From: an uncultured Armatimonadetes bacterium
GTDB lineage: Bacteria > Armatimonadota > UBA5829 > DTJY01
Assembly: GCA_963717145.1 (NCBI GenBank)
Contig: OY970325.1
Span: 1,920,001-1,984,000 of the forward strand
Direction of reading: 5' to 3'
Length of the DNA: 64,000 bases
The translations under genes were made by a program, and so were the position numbers. Shown here piece after piece: positions 4,008 to 53,500 of the stretch. The notes under the pieces were generated by a model. That model did not search any database, had not been told where the DNA came from, and saw only the letters and a program-made list of their open reading frames with translations. Within the stretch, counting starts at the first letter, position 1. Each line of letters starts with the position of its first letter.

Positions 4008-4042
4008 AAAAGGGCGGGATGCGTAGACGCTTCCCGCCCTTT
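4008..4042 (-). terminator. Intrinsic terminator downstream of 4105-4767
   Basis: Stem aaagggcggga/tcccgcccttt followed by T-rich sequence on the minus strand. Confidence 0.7.
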
Positions 4043-4104: not shown

Positions 4105-4767
4105 CTACGCCGCCGCCTGCAATCCGCGCGCTGCCACGGTCGCCTCGGCCGACGGCGCGGAGATATCCGTCTGTTTCGCCCCGCGATATCGGACGTAGTA
4201 CGTATAGTCCGACCCACTACCAGTGATCTCGTCGTAGTAGGGAGATCTAGTCGCCAGGCCGATCACCTGGAAGTCGGTCTCCCCGGCCTTCTTGCGATAG
4301 ATCGTCGCTGCCATCACGCCCGCCGGCTTGCCGTTCGTGTTCTCCTTCGATGGATTCGGGCCCCAGTGAACCGTCACCTGGCCGATCTTCGACTCCAGGT
4401 ACATCTTCGGCGTAAGCTCCGTGATCGGGAGCGGCATATCCTGAACGTACTGAGGCACGAGGCCGAGCAGGCTACGAAGCGCATCGGTCATGCCCGGATG
4501 CTTCTGGATGCGCTGAACGAGCGGGCGGAGGACGTCCTCGGAATCGGTGCGGCTGGTGACCTTCGCGGAGGTCGTGCTCTTCGCGAGACTCCTCTGCAAG
4601 AGGGCCGCCGCATACTTATCGGTGAAATCGGCCGACGCGGTTGTGATCGGCGTCAGGTCCGCCGGCAGAAGACCGACCATCCCTGCGTTGGTGGTCAGCA
4701 TCGCCACGAAATTGGCGAGCCATGCATCGTAGTCATTGTCACTTGGTGGATAATACGTCTTTCCCAT
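4105..4767 (-). CDS. Uncharacterised protein with an N-terminal helical domain and a C-terminal FN3-like beta domain; paralog of 21055-21732
   Basis: GAGGTG RBS; YYPPSDNDYDAWLANF, RPLVQRI...TDALR..LGL, VHWG...NGKP, IYRKKAG, ATRSPY and YVRYRG all align with the second paralog. Confidence 0.85.
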   Translation of the reverse strand: MGKTYYPPSDNDYDAWLANFVAMLTTNAGMVGLLPADLTPITTASADFTDKYAAALLQRSLAKSTTSAKVTSRTDSEDVLRPLVQRIQKHPGMTDALRSLLGLVPQYVQDMPLPITELTPKMYLESKIGQVTVHWGPNPSKENTNGKPAGVMAATIYRKKAGETDFQVIGLATRSPYYDEITGSGSDYTYYVRYRGAKQTDISAPSAEATVAARGLQAAA

Positions 4768-4804
4768 GCTTTATCACCTCGTCTGGATGCTAAGCCGACT
4801 GTCT

Positions 4805-4972
4805 GCCGCCACGGATATGACCTGCGATGCAGTGTCTATGAGTCTCCATGCAGCGTCTATGAGCCTTCATGCAGCGTCTATGACTCTCGATGCAGAGTCC
4901 ATGACTCTCCAAGCAGAGCTGCTCAGAACGATCGCAGAGCTGCTCCGCTCTTCCGGATCGCTGCACGGCGGC
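4805..4972. repeat. Degenerate tandem array of about 8 x 21-bp units upstream of 4105-4767
   Basis: Core units gatgcagtgtctatgagtctc, catgcagcgtctatgagcctt, catgcagcgtctatgactctc, gatgcagagtccatgactctc, caagcagagctgctcagaacg, atcgcagagctgctccgctct, plus one weaker unit on each side. Confidence 0.8.
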
Positions 4973-5194
4973 TGATCCACGCGGATCGGGCCTCGTCGGA
5001 GAGCGAACTCCCCGCCCCGGCTCATTCCCCGGCACTATTACCGGGTCAGCGGCCTGCACCACATATTCTTGGATTCGGGATCATGAATCTTTAGGGCCAC
5101 TAGCACTTGAGGGAAATCTTTTTCAAGATGCGATCGTGATGAGGATGAACGGCGGACCCCCTCTCCGCTGCGGGGAGCGCCGGGGAGGGGTGTT

Positions 5195-5262
5195 CCGGTG
5201 TTGGGTGATGGGTGTCAGGTGTTCGATGTTGGGCGTTCGATGTTCGATGTTCGATGTTCGCT
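5195..5262. repeat. Heptamer short tandem repeat (TTCGATG-like)
   Basis: gtgttcgatgttgggcgttcgatgttcgatgttcgatgttcg; similar heptamer tracts near 8732-8765 and 12523-12552. Confidence 0.75.
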
Positions 5263-8661: not shown

Positions 8662-8963
8662 TCGTGACCTCTTTCGTGGGGAGTCTGGTATAAGGATACA
8701 TTATCGGGCGGAATGATGCAAGGCGTCAGGGAATGGTTAATGGTCGATGGTTCATGGTTCATGGGGGAATGGGAGTGTGGAGACCTGGTATTGTTACCAG
8801 TTCTGCGGTTTTTGCTGGGCTTTGGAAGCTTCATGTGCTATAATATCAGGTAATCATCGGCTTGTGCACAGTGCCGGTAATGGGTGCGGCAGCACGGGCA
8901 GTCGCATCAGACGGCCTCACTGCCGTCATGGTTGGCATCGACTCAACGAAGGAGATGGGGAAC

Positions 8964-12273: not shown

Positions 12274-12552
12274 CCGTCTAGTCCTGAGTAGTCCTGATGA
12301 ATGGCAAGACGTAACGAAGGACGGTCGGGCCTGCACTAAGGTTGGTGCTCCGTAGGCCGCCCTTCGTTACATGCCGTCATTCACCGGCACACTCAGGGCT
12401 GACGGGCTTTCTCTGTGTCCTCTGTGCCTCTGTGGTTGAATGGCCGCCCTTCGTTACATGCCGTCATTCACCAGCACACTCAGGGCTAACGGGTTTTCAC
12501 TCCCATACTCCCATTCTCCATTCTGACTTCTGACTCCTGACTGCTGACTCCT
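12274..12552. repeat. Composite REP cluster: one inverted and two direct 52-bp copies, a CTCTGTG tract, and octamer/heptamer tracts
   Basis: ggccgcccttcgttacatgccgtcattcaccggcacactcagggctgacggg at 12355-12406 and 12442-12493 (2 mismatches); inverted, degenerate copy at about 12274-12323. Confidence 0.85.
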
Positions 12553-15898: not shown

Positions 15899-16408
15899 AT
15901 GAATTGCTGTATACAAAGTGCGAGAGATGGCGACCAGACCGCCAGAGAAGACCTGGTGGACAGACTTCGCCCTCGAATAGCGAGCATGGCCGGACACTAC
16001 GCGAGATGCACCGGCGAAGACCCTGATGACCTGCTTCAGGAAGCATGGGTCGGCCTGCTCGAAGCGCTCCCCGAACTGAACATGCACATCGGCAGCCCGG
16101 AGCAGTACCTCATCCGGCATGCCCGCTGGCGTCTGCTCGATGCGGTCAAGCACGCCCGAATCCGGCGATGTCTGCCGCTGGAGGACCAGGCGGGCGACGA
16201 CATCCCCCACCCCGAATCCGCGGTCGAGTCCGCGTTCGTCTCCGAATTCGCCGGACGCCTGAAGGAATCCCAGCGCGCGGTGCTCGGATGCCTGCTCGAC
16301 GGCCTGACGTGGCGGGAGGCCGGTCGCGCGCTCGGATGCACGTCGGCGAACGTGGCGTATCACGTGCGCCAGATCAAGCGGCGGTATGAGGAATGGACTG
16401 GGGAGTAG
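15899..16408 (+). CDS. ECF-family sigma-70 factor
   Basis: AGGAG RBS; region 2 (DPDDLLQEAWVGLLEAL) and region 4 HTH (GLTWREAGRALGCTSANV). Confidence 0.88.
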   Translation: MNCCIQSARDGDQTAREDLVDRLRPRIASMAGHYARCTGEDPDDLLQEAWVGLLEALPELNMHIGSPEQYLIRHARWRLLDAVKHARIRRCLPLEDQAGDDIPHPESAVESAFVSEFAGRLKESQRAVLGCLLDGLTWREAGRALGCTSANVAYHVRQIKRRYEEWTGE

Positions 16409-16410
16409 GC

Positions 16411-16503
16411 GAGTATGGGAGTGTGGGAGTATGGGAGACCGGAATCCGGCACCCCCAGACTTCCATACTCCCGTACCCCCACACTCCCACACTCCCATAC
16501 TCC
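16411..16503. repeat. Inverted octamer repeats (GGGAGTRT / CCATACTC)
   Basis: gagtatgggagtgtgggagtatggga ... tccatactcccgtacccccacactcccacactcccatactc. Confidence 0.8.
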
Positions 16504-21054: not shown

Positions 21055-21732
21055 TTACGCCGCTTTCTCGTGCGTCTGCAGGCCCATGACCGCCACCGTC
21101 TGCTCCGGGGAGTCCGGGCCTTCGTCTCCGTTCCTGCGGCCACGGTATCTGACAGCGAAGGTCATGATCGCGCCTTCGCCATGAACCCGATACAGGTAAG
21201 GCGATGAGGTCGCGAAGTCAAGCATGCGGAAGACCTCGTCGCCGGCCTTTTTCACATAGATATTGCATCCCAGCGCCCATTTCGGCTTCCCGTTCCGAAG
21301 CTCGTTCGCCGGCGCAGTGCCGAAATGCACGACGACCATGTTGCCCACCACTTCCAGATGGAGCGCCGGAGCCTCTTGACCGACTTCCCGCCTCACGCGC
21401 CCCTTATTGACGGCCTTTAGCCGCATCGCCCCGCGCATCTCGTCCGTGACCTGCGACTGGGAGCTGATGAACCTCACCAACGGACGTACGTGCGCTTCGA
21501 AGGTCGTCCGGGCCGTCTTCTTGCGCAGGACGGCCGCCTTTGCGAGCCTCTGTTGCGTCTGATGATTCTCCAGGGCGGCCACGAACTCCGCTCGATCCCC
21601 GGCCAGGAACGCCACTTGCTCGGGCGACAGCCGCAGTTCGTCGAGGTGAGACATGACGTAGCCCTCCAGGTTTCCGATCCAGCTCTTCACATCTTCGTCG
21701 TTGACAGGAATGTAATCGTCTTTCCGCGCCAT
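21055..21732 (-). CDS. Uncharacterised helical + FN3-like protein; paralog of 4105-4767
   Basis: GGGAG RBS; YIPVNDEDVKSWIGNL, RPLVRFI...TDEMR, VHFG...NGKP, IYVKKAG, ATSSPY, AVRYRG. Confidence 0.85.
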   Translation of the reverse strand: MARKDDYIPVNDEDVKSWIGNLEGYVMSHLDELRLSPEQVAFLAGDRAEFVAALENHQTQQRLAKAAVLRKKTARTTFEAHVRPLVRFISSQSQVTDEMRGAMRLKAVNKGRVRREVGQEAPALHLEVVGNMVVVHFGTAPANELRNGKPKWALGCNIYVKKAGDEVFRMLDFATSSPYLYRVHGEGAIMTFAVRYRGRRNGDEGPDSPEQTVAVMGLQTHEKAA

Positions 21733-21756
21733 GACACGTGCTCCCTTCAGTTAGTC

Positions 21757-21924
21757 GTTCCAACCGGCGGCGGGATCGGTCCGCTCGGCAGCGGGTCCGT
21801 TCCCCTCGTCAGCGGGAACGGACCCGCTGGCAGTTGGAACACCCCTGCCGAGAGAGGGACCGGGCCGACTCTCAGTGGGAATGGCCCCCCTCAAGGGTGG
21901 ACCATTCCCATTATCGGCGGGCTT
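21757..21924. repeat. Degenerate tandem array of 8 x 21-bp quasi-palindromic units upstream of 21055-21732
   Basis: gttccaaccggcggcgggatc, ggtccgctcggcagcgggtcc, gttcccctcgtcagcgggaac, ggacccgctggcagttggaac, acccctgccgagagagggacc, gggccgactctcagtgggaat, ggcccccctcaagggtggacc, attcccattatcggcgggctt; CC at positions 4-5 and GG at 17-18 in all eight. Confidence 0.85.
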
Positions 21925-21957
21925 GAGGGCGAACTGGAGGGAGGTTTGCGAGTCGTC

Positions 21958-47135: not shown

Positions 47136-47585
47136 CTACTGGGTACCCCATTCCTCAGTGTCCTCGGCGGGACAGTCCCACTCGCCGGCAGCCTCATACA
47201 TGAGCATGGCATAGACCTTCTCGAAGTCTTGCACATAGGCAACAAGCCCATCGGATAAACGAGCATGGTAGTATTCGCACTCCAAAGACGGCGGACGGGC
47301 GGTGAACGTACCATCTTCCCATACGCGCATCTGCCAGAACTGCGACAACCTTGCGTCCACAATCTCGAAGAGCAGTATCGGCGCCTGCAGAAGCGTCCCA
47401 TCATCGTCTACGTATTCGACGTACAGCCCTGTGCCGCGGAGTGACGAGTTGACATAGGAATACAGCCCAACTACGACGTACTCCTTGCCGATGGTGAGAC
47501 CGAAGCTCTGTGATCGGTAGAAACTCGTCCCCAACTGGGCGATACGCTCTTCGCTAGGATAATCGTAGAGACACCTGACTATCAT
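47136..47585 (-). CDS. Putative cognate immunity protein of the RHS toxin
   Basis: ATGA overlap with the RHS stop codon; LTIGKEYVV...PILLFEIVDARLSQFW. Confidence 0.78.
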   Translation of the reverse strand: MIVRCLYDYPSEERIAQLGTSFYRSQSFGLTIGKEYVVVGLYSYVNSSLRGTGLYVEYVDDDGTLLQAPILLFEIVDARLSQFWQMRVWEDGTFTARPPSLECEYYHARLSDGLVAYVQDFEKVYAMLMYEAAGEWDCPAEDTEEWGTQ

Positions 47586-50500
47586 TTCTTCTTCCCTGAT
47601 CCCGAAGTTCCTTTCCCAGCAGACGCCTTCGGCTTAGGTGTATCCACCTTCGCCTTCACGTCAACCTTCTCGCCAGTCTTGAGGTTCTCATACCAGTGTG
47701 CGGAGACTTTCTTCCCGCTATACAACTCCTTGGCGGGGCTACTCATTTTGGCCCAGTCACCTGCAGCCGTACCAGGATGCTGATTCATTAGTCTTGGGAG
47801 ATCATCTATTTGAGTCCCTACGTGCGTCGCCCTACCTGCAAATGTCTTCATCTCATGGAACGCCAGTTCTTCTGCCAAAGTAGTACATGCGTCCGTACCT
47901 GTTACGAACTTCTTTGCCTTGCTGGAGACCTTTGCGAGGCCCTTCGCGGCAGATGAAGCACCCTTCGTGGCAGATGCACTCTTCGCGGCAAACCCGGGCG
48001 CAGAAGCGGCTCCAGCACCTATCGTTGCAGCGGTGATCAACACCGTCCCAAAAGACTCGCCGAACTTCCTGGGATCACTCGTCGTAGTCCATTCCGTATA
48101 GGACTTTACCGCCCCTTTGAGAATCGCTCCACCTGCTGCGCCGACCCCTTCAGACTTGGCGAGATTGTAGACCGCAGCTACACCCTTCACTGTCTCCACC
48201 GGGTTCGCCGCATCCCAGTAACCCAGGAACACCTGACCAACATCGTGGAGATGACCATCTGGCGCCAGCCCGGTAGGATCTGTGTTGGTCACTGGGTTGT
48301 TACCAACGTATGCGTACCAGTTTCTGCCATCGCAACTCGGATCCAAGGTGATGAACCTGCCTGTCACCGGATCGTAGTATCTGGCGCCGCATTTCATCAG
48401 GCCTGTGTCCGGATCCGAATAGTATCCTTCCTTACCTACGTAGGCGTGCCTCGTGTCCGTCGTACCTATGCGCTGCAGCATGTTTCCCCACGCGTCGTAT
48501 ACAAGCCTGTCCCCCGTGGAAACACCGGCGGTGCTTGTCATTCTGATAGTACTGCCGAGATGATCGTGGTGGTAGTAGCTCGTTATGCCGCCCGACGTTT
48601 CGCTGATCTCCGGGTTATACCAGGTCAGGACATTGCCAGAGGAGTCGAGTTCCTGGAAGAGAAGGCCATCGCCGTACAAGTAACGCCGTGTTCCCCTGCT
48701 GTCGCTGGTCTGTGTGCGATCCCCGGATGCGTTGTATAGGAATGTGTCAGTTCTGCCGGGCATGACAACACTTGTGAGTTGGTTCTCGAAATCGTACCCA
48801 TACTCGGTAGTGCCGGACGGCGCTCGCTTGCGCCAGATGTTGCTATTGGCATCATAATCGAGGTAGGTGTAGCCGGCACCCTGCGAACCGTAGTCGGCAA
48901 GCCTACCGTTCGCGTCGTAGTGATACTCGGTGATCGACGTGCCGCTGGTCTTGGTGAGTCTGTTCCCGTTCGGATCGTATGCATAGCTGTAGCTATAGGG
49001 GACATCACCTGTCCTAGTCTCGGACTTCAATCTGTACAGCCAGTCGTAGGCATACGTGGCTGCTCCGAGACCGTCGGTCGCGGTGAGTATGTTCCCCACA
49101 TTGTCGTATGTGTAAGTGCATCCGTACATCAAAGCACCGTCGGCCTGGTAATGCGAGAGGTTCGACACGAGGTTCCTGGCGTTGCGGTAGCGAGACGGCG
49201 ACGGCGCCAGGCCATCGTTGTAGGCGTAGACAGTCCAGGCGCCATTCGGAAGTGTCTTCTTGGACAGCCGCCCTCGGAAGTCGTACTCATAACTGGTAAT
49301 CCCCCCGTTGGGGTCCTGCAGGCTACGAAGCCTGTCGTCCGGGTAGTACTCAAACCCGTAGGTAGCCAGCGGCGTGTCATTCAGGTCCCTGATCTGGACT
49401 ACCTTCCTGCACTCACTACCCGTGTACTCGTAGTGGATCTTCCGCCCGATGTCGAATCGCATCTCGTCGGTCATCCTGCCGACGCTGTCGTATACGTACT
49501 CACGAGCGGGCCAGGCCGGGCTGTGTACCCAACTGTGGGTAGTGGGATTCCAGTCATATGTCCAGTCGCACACCTTGCGGAGCAGGCCATCGGCGTCATA
49601 CTCAAACTTCACCTTCTGGTCCGGGGTACCACTGGTACCCACGTAATAGCACCGAGCTACACACCTGTTCGCCGCATCGTACTCGTACTTGATCCTGTTC
49701 TGGCGGCCATCAATCTGCTCCACGAGGTTATCGTTCTGATCGTAGAAATGCCTGACTGTGGTACCGTGAGAAGTCACACGACATGGCCTGCTGAAGGAAT
49801 CATACTCGTATGTGGCCACCGTGCGAGGCGTAGTCCATCCAGGTCCACTGACCCGAACCTCCTTCAGATTACCTACCGCGTCGTGCACATAGTCGGTCGT
49901 CACCCAGTTTGAGGCATCTTCCTGATGTCTTTCCTGTGACAGACACCCCAAGTAGTCATGCGTATACTCCGACACGCGACCATTCTCGTCAGTGGCTCTG
50001 CCGGTCTGGCCTGTAGGCAGGTATTCCTTCCTAGACTCGGTATCGCCCGAGTGCCAGATCTTGTAAGGACGACCGAGCTTATCGTAATCGAGTTGCACAA
50101 GCGCCAAAGCATCAGTGGAAGTGGTTCTTGGCAGTGCTTCCCAGTACTTGTTGCCTAGCGCATCATATCCGGACAGAACAGTCCTCCCTGTCTGATCGGT
50201 CGACTTATCCACGTACTGCTGGTAGCGTTGGTCGTAATGATATGTCATGGCTGGAGGAACCTGCTCGCCGTTCTGGTAGGGCCCAATCGTGGAAACAACA
50301 TTGCCGTAAGCATCATAGCCGAAGTCAGTAGCGATGTTTACGTTGTTGGGGTCCACCTGTGCTTTCGTCAAGTGGTAATTGCTGTCGTAGGTATTGCGAG
50401 TAAGCCGACCGGCCGCAGTGGTCAGCGTGTACAGGCAATTCCCAGCAGTATAGGTCATCGCCGTGGTCTTGCCAAGAGGGTTGGTGACAGAGAGCAGATT

Positions 50501-53500
50501 GCCCAGATTATTCGCGTCCCAACCGAAAGAGCTAACATAGCCACGAGCATCCCGATACCATTTGAGCCTGCCATCGCTATTGCGCCAGTTGAAGCACTCT
50601 GTGTAGTTCACGCCACAGCCATTCGAACTCCCACTTCTGGTTACATCATAGATGCGCAGTCCTCGCCAGAAATCTCGTCCCCAATGCTTTGCTTCAGCAT
50701 CGAACCACCAATCCGCATATCGATAGAGTATCTTCTCTCCGATAGGGGTAGTGACAGTGGTCTTGACCGCCGAGTGTTCGCAGTACCAAGGAGGAACAGG
50801 ATACGTAGACCAGTTCCAGGGATCATCCAGCCCGCCCTGGAGTAGTACATACCTGAACGAGGTCTTTCCTCCATGGCTATCCACTACATCCTTCAGCATG
50901 CCGCGCACGTAGTAGTACTGGAAGTTACCATGCGGCATGGAATCCCCTCCCAGCCCACATGGTAGGAGTAGGTCCAAGACTTGAGGTTGTCCGTCACTCT
51001 GGCCAAGCGCCCTTCCCCATCATAGGCAAGCGAGATTGTCTTACCGTCATACTGAACGAAGGGCACGTCCCCGGCCTGTGGCGCGGGATACTGAATACCG
51101 GTGAGCCGCCACGAGCTATCGTAGGAGAATGAGAACCTCTGGTAGTTCTGCCCAAATCTTCGACAAGAGTAGACCATTCTGGGCAGAGAGCGTCCGTCCG
51201 GCAGGCTATGCCAGAAGACCTGCATCCATCGACGGTTATCTGCGTCCCCAATCCATATCAACTGCTGTGGCCGCAGTTGGTCATAGTGCAAGGTCATCTT
51301 CTGCCCGGTGGGCTGTTCGATATACTTGGGCAACCAAGTGTTACTGCCAATAGGCCAGCAGTACCAAACCCTGGTATGATCCTTCCGTGTCACGATGAAG
51401 CCCTGTTCGCCGGCCGGTGCAGGCGTCAGCCCGTCGGTGTTCTCCCACCAAAGGGTATCGCGCACCCAGGACGATCCGCTACGCTTCCAGTACTGAGCAG
51501 TCCCAGACGGGTGATATACCCACACCTTGGAATCGCTCTTCTTCTGCAGAATCGACTGGTATGAGTACATCCATTTGTCTTTGCCGGCAGGTCGATCCTT
51601 GCGCTCGCTCTGGTGAACCATGCTGAAGTCTAGATCCAGATCTCCCATAGAATCCCAGCCCAATATGGGAATCGTCGTCAACACGATCCCGGTGGCGGTG
51701 TTTGCTACGGAGTAATCACTTATCGGCAGGACCTTCTGCGATTCAAACAAGTTGGGTTGGATGTTTCCCGGCAGGTCGCTCTCTCCGGGGCTTCCGGAGA
51801 GTAGATTCATCTGAAGCATCTGTTGCTGGTACTGCACAGTAACGGTTACACCGGGGCCTGGTGATTCCACCAGGCCAGCCTTATCCGCGGCGCGTGACCT
51901 GATCGTATAGGATCCTGAGGCCGTTACCGGAAATGTGTAGTTGAAGAAATCAGTCCCACTCGCCTCGATCCAGGTCACCCCGTCGTCAAGACTCAACTCA
52001 ACCTCTGCTACGCCCGACGTGCCATCAAAGGCGGTCCCGCTTACCTCGATGCTGTCGCCGACTATCTCCAGCCCGACTGCAGGTTCAATGATACTAGATC
52101 TGGGCACAACGGTATCCACAATCACGATGATTCCCGAACCAGGCGTCTCTGCGACCGGCGGAGTAGCAGTATCAGTAGCGCGGCTCTTTATCGTATACCT
52201 GCCGTCCTCCAAAGCATCCCAGGAATAGCTCCAGGTACTTGTCCCAGTCACATCGACCCATGACTGTTGTCCATCGTTACTTATCTCAACTCCGCTTACG
52301 CCGGGTATGCCGGTAGCAGTTCCTGATAGCACGACCGGTATGGAGGTGATGTACTCGCCACTTGCGTGGCTTGTAATCCGCGATTTGGGGCCTGAAGGAA
52401 CTTCAACGGCAATACCACCCATGATCTCCGGGTTTTGAATGTCATGTAGACCGTTATCATTGATGACCGCCAATGCGACTAACTTATCTCCAGCAAATGA
52501 TGCTTTGAAGACAATGCTCCAAGTGATGGACAGGCTGTTGTCTGCACCCGACACACCAGTGCTGGACAGATCGACTATCACATTCTCGTTCTCCAGCGTC
52601 ACGCTGGCCCCAGGGGTGTAGCCCTCTCCGCCCATCCACTCAACAGCACTATCATCAGACAACCAGCACTGGCCGGTGTTTTGGTTGTATAGCAGGTGGC
52701 ATGCTGATATCCCATCAAGCGTAGGTTCGTCTATCAGCAATTCAGCCGTACCGATATTGGTGTAGCGGCAGTAATCGGAATATGTGACGGTGAACGGCGT
52801 TGGAGTACCGGTGTACAGCGTCCCGGAAGACGGACTGAGAGAGGCATTCTCCGGAGGATTCGTGTCTTGCAGCGCGGTGAAGACATGCCCAATAGCACTC
52901 CAAGTACTCCAACCGAGCACGTTGTGCACCCGGACGAAGGCGTAGTACGGACCTCCCTCACTTAGCGTTAGATCACACAAAGCCGAGCCGTCTTGAACGT
53001 TAGCTGCGCAGTCGACCTCCGCATCCTCTACGAGCACCTCCCCGGAATCCCAGATGACACCGGTACCGGAACTATCTTCAGAACATATCCTCACCTGGAA
53101 CTGGTCGTGCATCGCAGCTCGCCAGGTGATAGTCGGGGTCAGCGAACAATAGGCCTCGCCTACCTCTGGATCCATGATCACCGGAGATGCAGGTGAACTA
53201 CCAAACACACGCACAGCAATCTGACTAGCCTCAGACATAGGATCGTCATTGGGGTTGCCGGCATCGTTGGCCGTGAGCGATACCAGATAACATCCAGTGG
53301 CAGCAAAAACGTGTGAGACCAGCGCCCCGGCTTCCTGCGGAGTGCCATCACCAAAATCCCAATTATAAGCAGTTATAGTATCACTGACCCGGTCAAGGTT
53401 GGAGTCGAAATCATCATCGTAGGAGGGCGAATCAGGGCAGTCACCCCTAAGGTAGACGATCTGTCCCAGCGTTACGTCAAGTACTCTCGACTGCCATGGC

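Follow-up and report, generated by a model that had tools for sequence, protein, structure and literature searches.

The 64,000-nucleotide stretch of DNA analyzed here (the window) corresponds to C1:1920001-1984000 of an uncultured Armatimonadetes bacterium (host genome G000; 5.37 Mb in one contig, C1; GC content 60.6%). On its minus strand, the window carries two copies of an uncharacterized gene, each with an array of 21-bp tandem units directly upstream (Table 1). An earlier note, made from the letters of this stretch alone, had described the pair as paralogs with the same layout, with about eight units in front of each gene and unrelated repeat sequences in the two arrays. The paralogy is borne out by the comparison of the two proteins, which are 33% identical (E 7e-38). 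Copy 1 consists of a helical N-terminal domain (N-domain; residues ~10-100), a Pro-rich linker and an FN3-fold domain (~121-213), and ends in ...LQAAA.

Both arrays are readily detected by autocorrelation and by Tandem Repeats Finder (TRF). In the 250 bp upstream of copy 1, the identity is 0.52 at lag 21 and 0.42 at lag 42, compared to 0.32 for the best unrelated lag; TRF reports 4816-4918 as period 21, with 4.3-4.4 copies and 81-84% matches. The bounds of array 1 given in Table 1 (9.0 units) come from a looser periodicity threshold. Set in the 21-bp register, this array contains about five well-kept units, the best of them at 4816-4918, two distal, degenerate units of a second subtype (GAGCAGCTCTGC), and degenerate flanks. 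Upstream of copy 2, lags 21 and 42 both reach 0.45 over the same distance, and TRF finds period 21 at 21765-21840 (3.6 copies, 71% matches); at the looser threshold, array 2 comprises about 8.5 units. The units of array 2 partly alternate in orientation (GGGTCCGTTCCC / GGGAACGGACCC), and long hairpins are therefore possible on either strand. The consensus units of arrays 1 and 2 are indeed unrelated to each other.

Table 1. Features of the two gene-array modules and other repeats mentioned in the text (window positions, unless given on contig C1)
Feature	Position	Strand	Description
Family gene copy 1	4105..4767	minus	ORF, 220 aa
Array 1	4795..4984	minus	~9 units of 21 bp; -217 to -28 relative to ATG
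Weak -10-like hexamer GGTAAT (ccGGTAATag)	5037..5042	minus	distal to array 1
Terminator-like hairpin	4009..4042	minus	~63 nt past copy 1 stop; 11-bp stem AAAGGGCGGGA/TCCCGCCCTTT, then TGTT
Motif GAGAGCGAACT	4999..5009	plus	partner GAGGGCGAACT at 21925-21935
Family gene copy 2	21055..21732	minus	ORF, 225 aa
Array 2	21739..21918	minus	~8.5 units of 21 bp
-10-like GATAAT (gccGATAATgg)	21910..21915	minus	distal edge of array 2; tccagt 17 bp upstream
C-terminus examples	4105-4119; 21055-21069		family genes
Short-unit 7-8 bp repeats	5188-5260; 2346-2424; 8732-8764; 12499-12552; 16401-16503		intergenic
Orphan arrays resembling those of L006, L012, L022	C1:895026-895351; C1:1292375-1292646; C1:546328-546506		unit similarity

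Linkage of gene and array in the host genome and beyond

The host genome encodes 25 paralogs of this family (loci L001-L025), all dispersed and solitary, and a hidden Markov model built from them recovers exactly these 25 open reading frames (ORFs), even at E-values up to 10. The proteins are 215-227 aa long, share the N-terminus M..DY(I/L)P..D..F..W..NF, and are 22-57% identical to copy 1; only one pair of paralogs reaches 94% identity. An array of at least 84 bp with a period of 21 or 22 bp lies within 700 bp upstream of 22 of the 25 genes, the three without one being L013, L016 and L024; the arrays of L005, L011, L014 and L018 are weak, and the signal at L017 stems from a 7-bp repeat. Autocorrelation over just the 250 bp upstream peaks at lag 21 or 42 for 14 of the 25 paralogs and at lag 22 for two more. 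The start context that follows the arrays is conserved as well, with a Shine-Dalgarno sequence AGGAGG, the ATG and the invariant N-terminal motif.

The same association emerges when the repeats, rather than the genes, are taken as the starting point. Across the genome, a lag identity of 0.6 or higher was reached in 25 regions for lag 21, in 26 for lag 42 and in 5 for lag 22; other lags between 9 and 41 and between 45 and 60 gave 0-4 regions each, the doubles 43 and 44 gave 6 each, and 7-mers and 8-mers accounted for 14 and 15 regions, respectively. Among the 48 merged periodic regions, 19 lie between -50 and 400 bp upstream of a family gene and two more at 403 and 547 bp, whereas the remaining ones comprise intergenic orphan arrays and coding repeats of the heptad or Gly-rich type. 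Across 4808 crude ORFs, an upstream top lag of 21, 22 or 42-44 with identity of 0.40 or more was found for 14 family ORFs and for 27 non-family ORFs (0.56%), some of which are family ORFs called with over-long starts or divergent neighbors of family arrays. The linkage between the gene and the array is real, far beyond chance and, as the genomes described below demonstrate, deeply conserved.

The period and the position of the arrays are conserved, whereas their sequence is not: what the earlier note had concluded from two copies holds for the 25 paralogs, for four other genera and for a second phylum. For three protein pairs at 93-94% identity, the similarity of the array consensuses is 0.71-0.86; at 60-71% protein identity, it is indistinguishable from background (0.38-0.62; background mean 0.45), and the mean similarity from family array to family array is 0.49. 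As read from the alignments, older arrays keep a short core and exact spacing, while the linkers vary between units. Examples of such cores are GGGG-loop-CCCC (L047), GTCGCGT (L061 and L065) and yGGAGC-N4-TCCrr (L069). The unit consensuses are enriched in dyad symmetry, with a mean best stem of 4.51 vs 3.62 for shuffled units, a value reached by none of the 200 shuffles; the cores of L001, L025 and L074 are not palindromic. The host arrays of period 22 all belong to a single protein subclade (L015, L021, L022 and L023; 59-67% identical to L016), and their four repeat sequences are mutually unrelated. This distribution fits either an inherited period or a match between the protein and the period.

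Of 40 related genomes that were searched, the family was found in 5 of the 10 from the same taxonomic family and in none of the 30 from other families of the class. In four other genera, the top upstream lag is 21, 42 or 22 at 18 of the 19 homolog loci, and the arrays are clean, with 7-12 units and a sequence of their own in each case. A broader sample of the phylum yielded family matches in 16 of 151 genomes, many of them aligning over the N-domain only; the 20 distant loci identified through such matches encode proteins of 204-222 aa, and the top lag is 21 or 42 at 18 of these. The autocorrelation analysis of homologs that the earlier note had proposed recovers the 21-bp peak in both sets, more weakly in the distant one. 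The distant homologs L188-L202 (genomes G172, G073 and G142), which align to the profile over the N-terminal helical domain only, keep the overall length, a Pro/Thr/Arg-rich linker and a ..KAA or ..MAA end; nine distant copies are present in G172.

The linkage extends to other phyla. With a 10-row subfamily alignment as the query, 38 loci were retrieved from species genomes, 37 of them in named Planctomycetota (mostly Phycisphaerae) and one in Pyrinomonadaceae. After leaving out three loci without upstream DNA and one without a start codon, 34 loci were retained, and lag 21 or 42 was the top lag in 21 of them; for the near-full-length homologs (21 from Planctomycetota and one from Acidobacteriota), an array signal was present in 15 of 22. 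Under a strict local test applied to 98 upstream regions, 43 passed, 40 with period 21 and 3 with period 22, and no other period between 10 and 35 was encountered in this set.

A profile search retrieved 6268 cluster representatives at E <=1e-3, 3402 at 1e-10 and 491 at 1e-30; the weaker matches may share the FN3 domain alone. Look-alike clusters in the Atlas, which we consider a lead only, are most common in Spirochaetota, Bacteroidota and Planctomycetota, and in one of these clusters 32% of the members carry fn3. Searches of phage, plasmid and IMG/VR viral collections yielded no relatives.

Predicted fold, dimerization and C-terminus of the family protein

The prediction of a helical and FN3-like protein in the earlier note is upheld by structural modeling and fold searches. 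The AlphaFold2 model of copy 1 has a pLDDT (predicted local distance difference test) score of 90.7 and consists of helices at residues 10-26, 35-88 (54 residues) and 95-100, followed by a seven-strand sandwich at 121-213. The C-terminal domain adopts the FN3 fold: the top Foldseek matches in the Protein Data Bank (PDB) are all FN3 domains (E 2e-5), and structural comparison with VIA gives the same assignment, with 5z06_B (Z 12.0; root-mean-square deviation (rmsd) 2.1; 91 residues aligned) and 1cfb_A (Z 11.6). At the sequence level, neither of the two window proteins matches Pfam fn3 (PF00041), even with an E-value cutoff of 1. The N-domain modeled alone, as the earlier note had suggested doing, is all-helical without any strand, at a pLDDT of 93.3. 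Its best fold match has Z 6.9, with rmsd 6.6 over 89 aligned residues, and represents generic helical hairpins, below the level at which a match between helical folds is meaningful. Searches of Pfam, NCBIfam, PHROGs and PADLOC produced nothing beyond single weak matches and assigned the protein to no known family, and PDB sequence searches with both profiles gave best E-values of 0.15-0.33.

Prediction with two copies yielded a symmetric antiparallel dimer in which the interface comprises residues 5-104. The score is 0.72, compared to 0.00 for the best of three controls; a score this high is reached by 20 of 30 solved one-chain pairs and by 1 of 23 solved single chains, counts that are only approximate here because the prediction was run on a custom alignment. 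The runs agree in at least 74% of the contacts, and the partner pLDDT is at least 85. The model thus supports a homodimer formed through the helical N-domain. Members of the superfamily share a conserved basic stretch, K..R......R.LV.RIQ..P..T..LR.

The family proteins typically end in Ala-Ala, in 21 of 25 paralogs of the host genome and in 13 of 19 and 16 of 20 proteins of the two homolog sets, vs 89 of 4811 crude ORFs (1.85%). In Escherichia coli, a free C-terminus ending in Ala-Ala constitutes the SsrA-like C-motif 1 degron recognized by ClpXP. The host genome has a tmRNA gene at C1:169206-169558, and the encoded SsrA tag is GTNSYALAA. By analogy, the Ala-Ala end of the family proteins may be a built-in ClpXP-type degron.

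Possible modes of action of the array

Most family genes carry a bipartite motif, T(A/G)(C/G)AGA-N17-ccGATAATgg, which, judging from its sequence, is a putative sigma-70-like promoter. The position of this motif relative to the array differs between the two subfamilies of the host genome. In subfamily A (L001-L010, with the C-terminus ..AARG..AA), which includes both window copies, the arrays stop 7-70 bp before the ATG, and 6 of 10 genes have the motif upstream of the array. In subfamily B (L011-L025, ending in SATIAA), the motif is located between the array and the ATG, at -40 to -319, in 10 of 15 genes. If the motif is the promoter, the array could work from either side of the transcription start, which would favor action at the DNA level. 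For copy 2, the GATAAT hexamer at the distal edge of the array would, if it is the promoter, cause array 2 to be transcribed as a leader. For copy 1, the weak GGTAAT hexamer beyond array 1 is an uncertain counterpart of the family motif ccGATAATgg. As a general genome motif, CCGATAAT was rejected, given that it is not enriched genome-wide (108 observed vs 88 expected); its concentration upstream of the family genes is family-specific, and its promoter role is putative.

Among the explanations considered, we tentatively favor one in which the array is a phased binding platform that acts as DNA, is coupled to the adjacent gene and is possibly bound by the dimeric product of that gene. Under this scenario, the module would comprise a sigma-70-like promoter, a private array of ~5-15 units of 21, rarely 22, bp, and one gene coding for a cytoplasmic protein of ~205-225 aa with a dimerizing helical N-domain, an FN3 fold and an Ala-Ala end. 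The short cores, often with dyad symmetry, would recur on the same face of the DNA at intervals of two helical turns, and a protein would load cooperatively onto the array and set the transcription of the adjacent gene. The likeliest binder would be the gene's own product, with one dimer per unit, in an arrangement resembling an autoregulatory operator of the iteron or ParR/parC type; the Ala-Ala end would keep the protein short-lived, like the end of the host SsrA tag. Co-evolution of the array with a cognate protein would be in line with the private character of the arrays, the lack of a partner gene, the predicted symmetric homodimer and the occurrence of period 22 in a single subclade.

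In a more specific version, to which we assign a rather low probability, the family would consist of self-specific DNA "ruler" proteins, in which each dimer spans two helical turns and which polymerize on their own arrays. The 54-residue helix, at an estimated ~80 A, is close to the ~71 A of 21 bp, as would be expected for one dimer per two helical turns. If this version is correct, the superfamily, counting thousands of members from several phyla, would be the missing protein partner that explains why a 20-22 bp lock coexists with a free repeat sequence in bacterial non-coding tandem repeats.

Several observations weigh against binding of the array by the family protein, or limit the force of the linkage itself. 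The sequence turnover is complete at ~70% protein identity, which would imply very fast change of the binding specificity. No nucleic-acid-binding domain was recognized by the searches of Pfam, NCBIfam, PHROGs, PADLOC and PDB sequences or by the fold search. The proteins are mostly acidic, with pI 5.2-6.7 in 18 of 25 and an N-domain net charge of 0 or below in 20 of 25. Among the full-length homologs from other phyla, 7 of 22, including the Acidobacteriota locus, lack an array, and the arrays of the distant homologs are degenerate, so that 3 of 20 pass the strict local test. At least 10 intergenic arrays of 21 or 22 bp adjoin unrelated genes in the host genome. A consensus promoter scan listed none of the sites of the bipartite motif; the GGTAAT hexamer of copy 1 is likewise absent from its results, which for the two window copies consist of one chance-level site overlapping the copy 1 start codon and none for copy 2. 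Paralogs and related genomes are not independent, and the counts given above overstate the statistical weight accordingly. Finally, some of the conservation is plain co-inheritance of the gene and the array; the repeat sequences have been replaced many times, yet the linkage and the period have been kept, and co-inheritance alone is therefore insufficient. For co-evolution of the array with its cognate protein, as proposed in the earlier note, the evidence points both ways.

An alternative that we regard as unlikely, if well worth weighing, places the function in RNA: transcription of the array would yield either a 5' leader or a non-coding RNA of its own, in which short periodic hairpins would control the stability or translation of the mRNA or act as a small RNA or sponge. 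The geometry of subfamily A, with arrays between the promoter-like motif and the ATG that end 7-70 nt before the start, is what such a leader requires, and the leader RNA offered in the earlier note fits that subfamily only, given that the array is upstream of the motif in the majority of subfamily B genes. The folding results are similarly divided. In subfamily A of the host genome, 9 of 10 arrays are more stable in the sense than in the antisense orientation, and the leader of copy 2 folds better than all of its 200 shuffles (z -5.49); however, its antisense strand folds almost equally well (z -4.37), the copy 1 leader is no better than shuffles (z -1.24 sense, -0.10 antisense), and over 30 arrays the sense strand is the more stable one in 14 and the antisense strand in 16. 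The inverted repeats that are enriched among unit consensuses would suit hairpins, although some cores, as noted above, are non-palindromic. The 1735 stem cells divide into 1019 that retain the consensus pair, 58 compensated ones, 157 G.T (sense strand), 108 A.C and 393 other mismatches. The excess of sense G.T over A.C is in the direction expected for RNA, but 658 cells are not Watson-Crick, and with 58 compensated ones against them, covariation of hairpins was rejected. Rfam gives no match in the window at gathering thresholds. Transcription of such repeats has been proposed by Subirana and Messeguer (PMC8161180).

Another explanation, improbable in our assessment to a similar extent, is that the arrays are generic period-locked minisatellites that have no gene-specific function; any recognition would be through DNA shape or by a general nucleoid or architectural factor, and the upstream placement would be due to joint duplication or to tolerant intergenic regions. 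A class of this kind has been described in Bacillus and, according to the same authors, occurs in Cyanobacteria, Actinobacteria and other bacteria, with a suggested role in the nucleoid (PMC8161180). Fast sequence turnover would also be typical of a neutral minisatellite under concerted evolution, but here the cores are kept even though the linkers have diverged to saturation. The orphan arrays of the host genome fit this explanation. They are found next to GH99-like, beta-helix, LarA, MFS, radical SAM and SSF/Kelch genes, and in one case between convergent genes. The earlier note had singled out equally frequent arrays beside unrelated genes as the finding that would undermine the module; orphan arrays do exist, but upstream periodicity occurs at 0.56% of the non-family ORFs and at most family genes. 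Three of 10 orphan arrays resemble a family-linked array at 0.71-0.77, above the family-to-family maximum of 0.67 (Table 1), and would fit additional targets in trans. Also difficult to reconcile with generic repeats are the persistence of the linkage in the homologs that match in the N-domain only (18 of 20) and in another phylum, and the repeat content of a relative that lacks the family. In the part of that genome compared, 1.6 of 3.78 Mb in a single relative, there is no non-coding 21-bp array, and the only lag-21 region is due to a GCT-rich repeat in coding sequence; in the host genome, three stretches of 1.6 Mb each contain 11, 13 and 2 lag-21 regions.

Many arrays in the lower-GC relatives show one A-tract per unit, as read from the alignments, so that curvature would add up along the array, in line with readout through DNA shape. 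A-tract curvature as a general principle was rejected, as an A/T run of three or more is present in only about 14 of 32 unit consensuses by a by-eye estimate.

It is very unlikely that the module is a mobile or recombination cassette with the array as a recombination or replication site. The 25 dispersed solitary copies, the patchy distribution (5 of 10 genomes in the taxonomic family and 16 of 151 in the phylum sample) and the similarity of some arrays to orphan arrays elsewhere would be compatible with mobility. However, no recombinase, transposase, Rep or other gene recurs beside the module (2204 flanking ORFs from ~100 loci were clustered, and the only recurring clusters are shadow ORFs that overlap the family gene itself); the paralogs are old, with just the one 94% pair nearly identical; viral and plasmid relatives are lacking; and the arrays are private to each gene, with no common end sequence.

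A coding repeat, in which 21 bp would represent seven codons of a heptad leader peptide or N-terminal extension, can be set aside for practical purposes, even though 21 is divisible by 3 and several arrays share an uninterrupted reading frame with the gene (305-371 aa): period-22 arrays exist (L015, L021, L022, L023 and L047), the Shine-Dalgarno sequence, the ATG and the invariant N-terminal motif come after the array, stop codons separate array 1 from the copy 1 ATG, and arrays occur on either side of the promoter-like motif. The 22-bp arrays exclude the periodic leader peptide considered in the earlier note. Array 1 is open in one frame, as part of the minus-strand ORF 4790-5062, with a His/Cys-rich heptad (ESHRRCM and similar); we judge this frame to be non-coding, given the 22-bp arrays elsewhere. 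The database homologs P0035, P0036, P0100, P0102, P0112 and P0123 have N-terminal extensions of ~85 aa ahead of the conserved start, which are probably gene calls through an in-frame 21-bp array, that is, a systematic annotation error.

Relation to known repeat systems and other features of the window

Several known bacterial repeat systems resemble the gene-array module in part. The iterons of R6K, RK2, pPS10, F and P1-type replicons are direct repeats of 17-22 bp, phased at ~21-22 bp and private to each replicon; they adjoin the gene whose Rep product binds them and represses its own expression. The family arrays share the ~21-bp phasing, the private repeats and the position beside one gene. 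Unlike iteron/Rep systems, they are present as 25 solitary chromosomal copies without plasmid or phage relatives (no search was aimed at DnaA boxes or other origin features), and the proteins match no Rep family in Pfam or NCBIfam, the N-domain model being all-helical without strands; the fold search of this domain lists no winged helix among its generic helical matches. In the partition systems parC/ParR (R1, pSK41) and sopC/SopB (43-bp units), each with its private specificity, an upstream array is bound cooperatively by a dimer and doubles as the operator. The resemblance lies in the tandem array upstream of the gene for a (predicted) dimeric protein; the family differs from ParR/parC in having neither a partner NTPase nor a ribbon-helix-helix or helix-turn-helix domain, with a single gene at ~100 loci. 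REP/BIME/REPIN elements are similar in that they are intergenic and palindromic, and array 2 has the alternating orientation, but REP families share one sequence at many loci and are not locked at 21 bp, whereas the family arrays are private.

The repeat class closest to the family arrays is reportedly also the subject of a 2020 article by Subirana and Messeguer in J Bacteriol. A description of the gene-plus-array module was not found in the literature, where searches for one turned up only the papers of these two authors, although a link to genes in that article or in supplements is possible. The earlier note, which knew of no description, is therefore right with respect to the module, but the repeats as a class have been published: Subirana and Messeguer (Int J Mol Sci 2021; PMC8161180) described non-coding bacterial tandem repeats whose size is constant, at 20-21 or 52 nt, and whose sequence is variable, with related texts in PMC6749651 and PMC8625621. 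In PMC8161180, the class is characterized by non-coding arrays of at least four units, with the length fixed at 20-21 (20-23) nt, the sequence varying within a genome and a short conserved core inside the units. The family arrays conform to this description, being non-coding, with at least four units and with a fixed length and a sequence that varies between arrays; they differ in being tied to one protein superfamily across phyla. The authors note that the unit corresponds to two helical turns and propose a polymerizing protein or small RNAs, but report neither a function nor, in the text consulted, a link to any gene; PMC8161180 nowhere uses the words upstream, promoter, flanking, intergenic or adjacent gene.

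Fixed 20-21-nt repeats of free sequence, until now without a function, a partner or an experimental handle, are thereby tied to one large uncharacterized superfamily of single-gene modules, which occurs in Armatimonadota and Planctomycetota at the least. Should the protein prove to be the binder, it would represent a new sequence-specific, period-measuring DNA-binding fold, and the dozens of mutually orthogonal protein-site pairs held by one cell would also be attractive as a toolkit. Otherwise, the module still represents a conserved, previously undescribed cis-regulatory architecture.

The remaining features of the window are of lesser consequence. The terminator that the earlier note attributed to copy 1 can be recognized as an 11-bp-stem hairpin followed by a T-rich stretch (Table 1). 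A consensus terminator scan listed none for either copy; it missed this hairpin because its loop limit is 8 nt. The motif GAG(A/G)GCGAACT, noted earlier as distal to both arrays, is present at both positions, but has 18 matches in the genome and precedes only 2 of the 25 family genes, the two window copies; it is therefore treated as a coincidence and was rejected as a family element. Tandem repeats of 7-8 bp (e.g., TGTTCGA and CACTCCCA) are found in intergenic gaps of the window, one such stretch just upstream of array 1. A further TRF repeat of period 21 (2.7 copies; consensus CCCTTCGCGGCAGATGCA) is located at 47940-47990, within the long minus-strand ORF 47582-50977.

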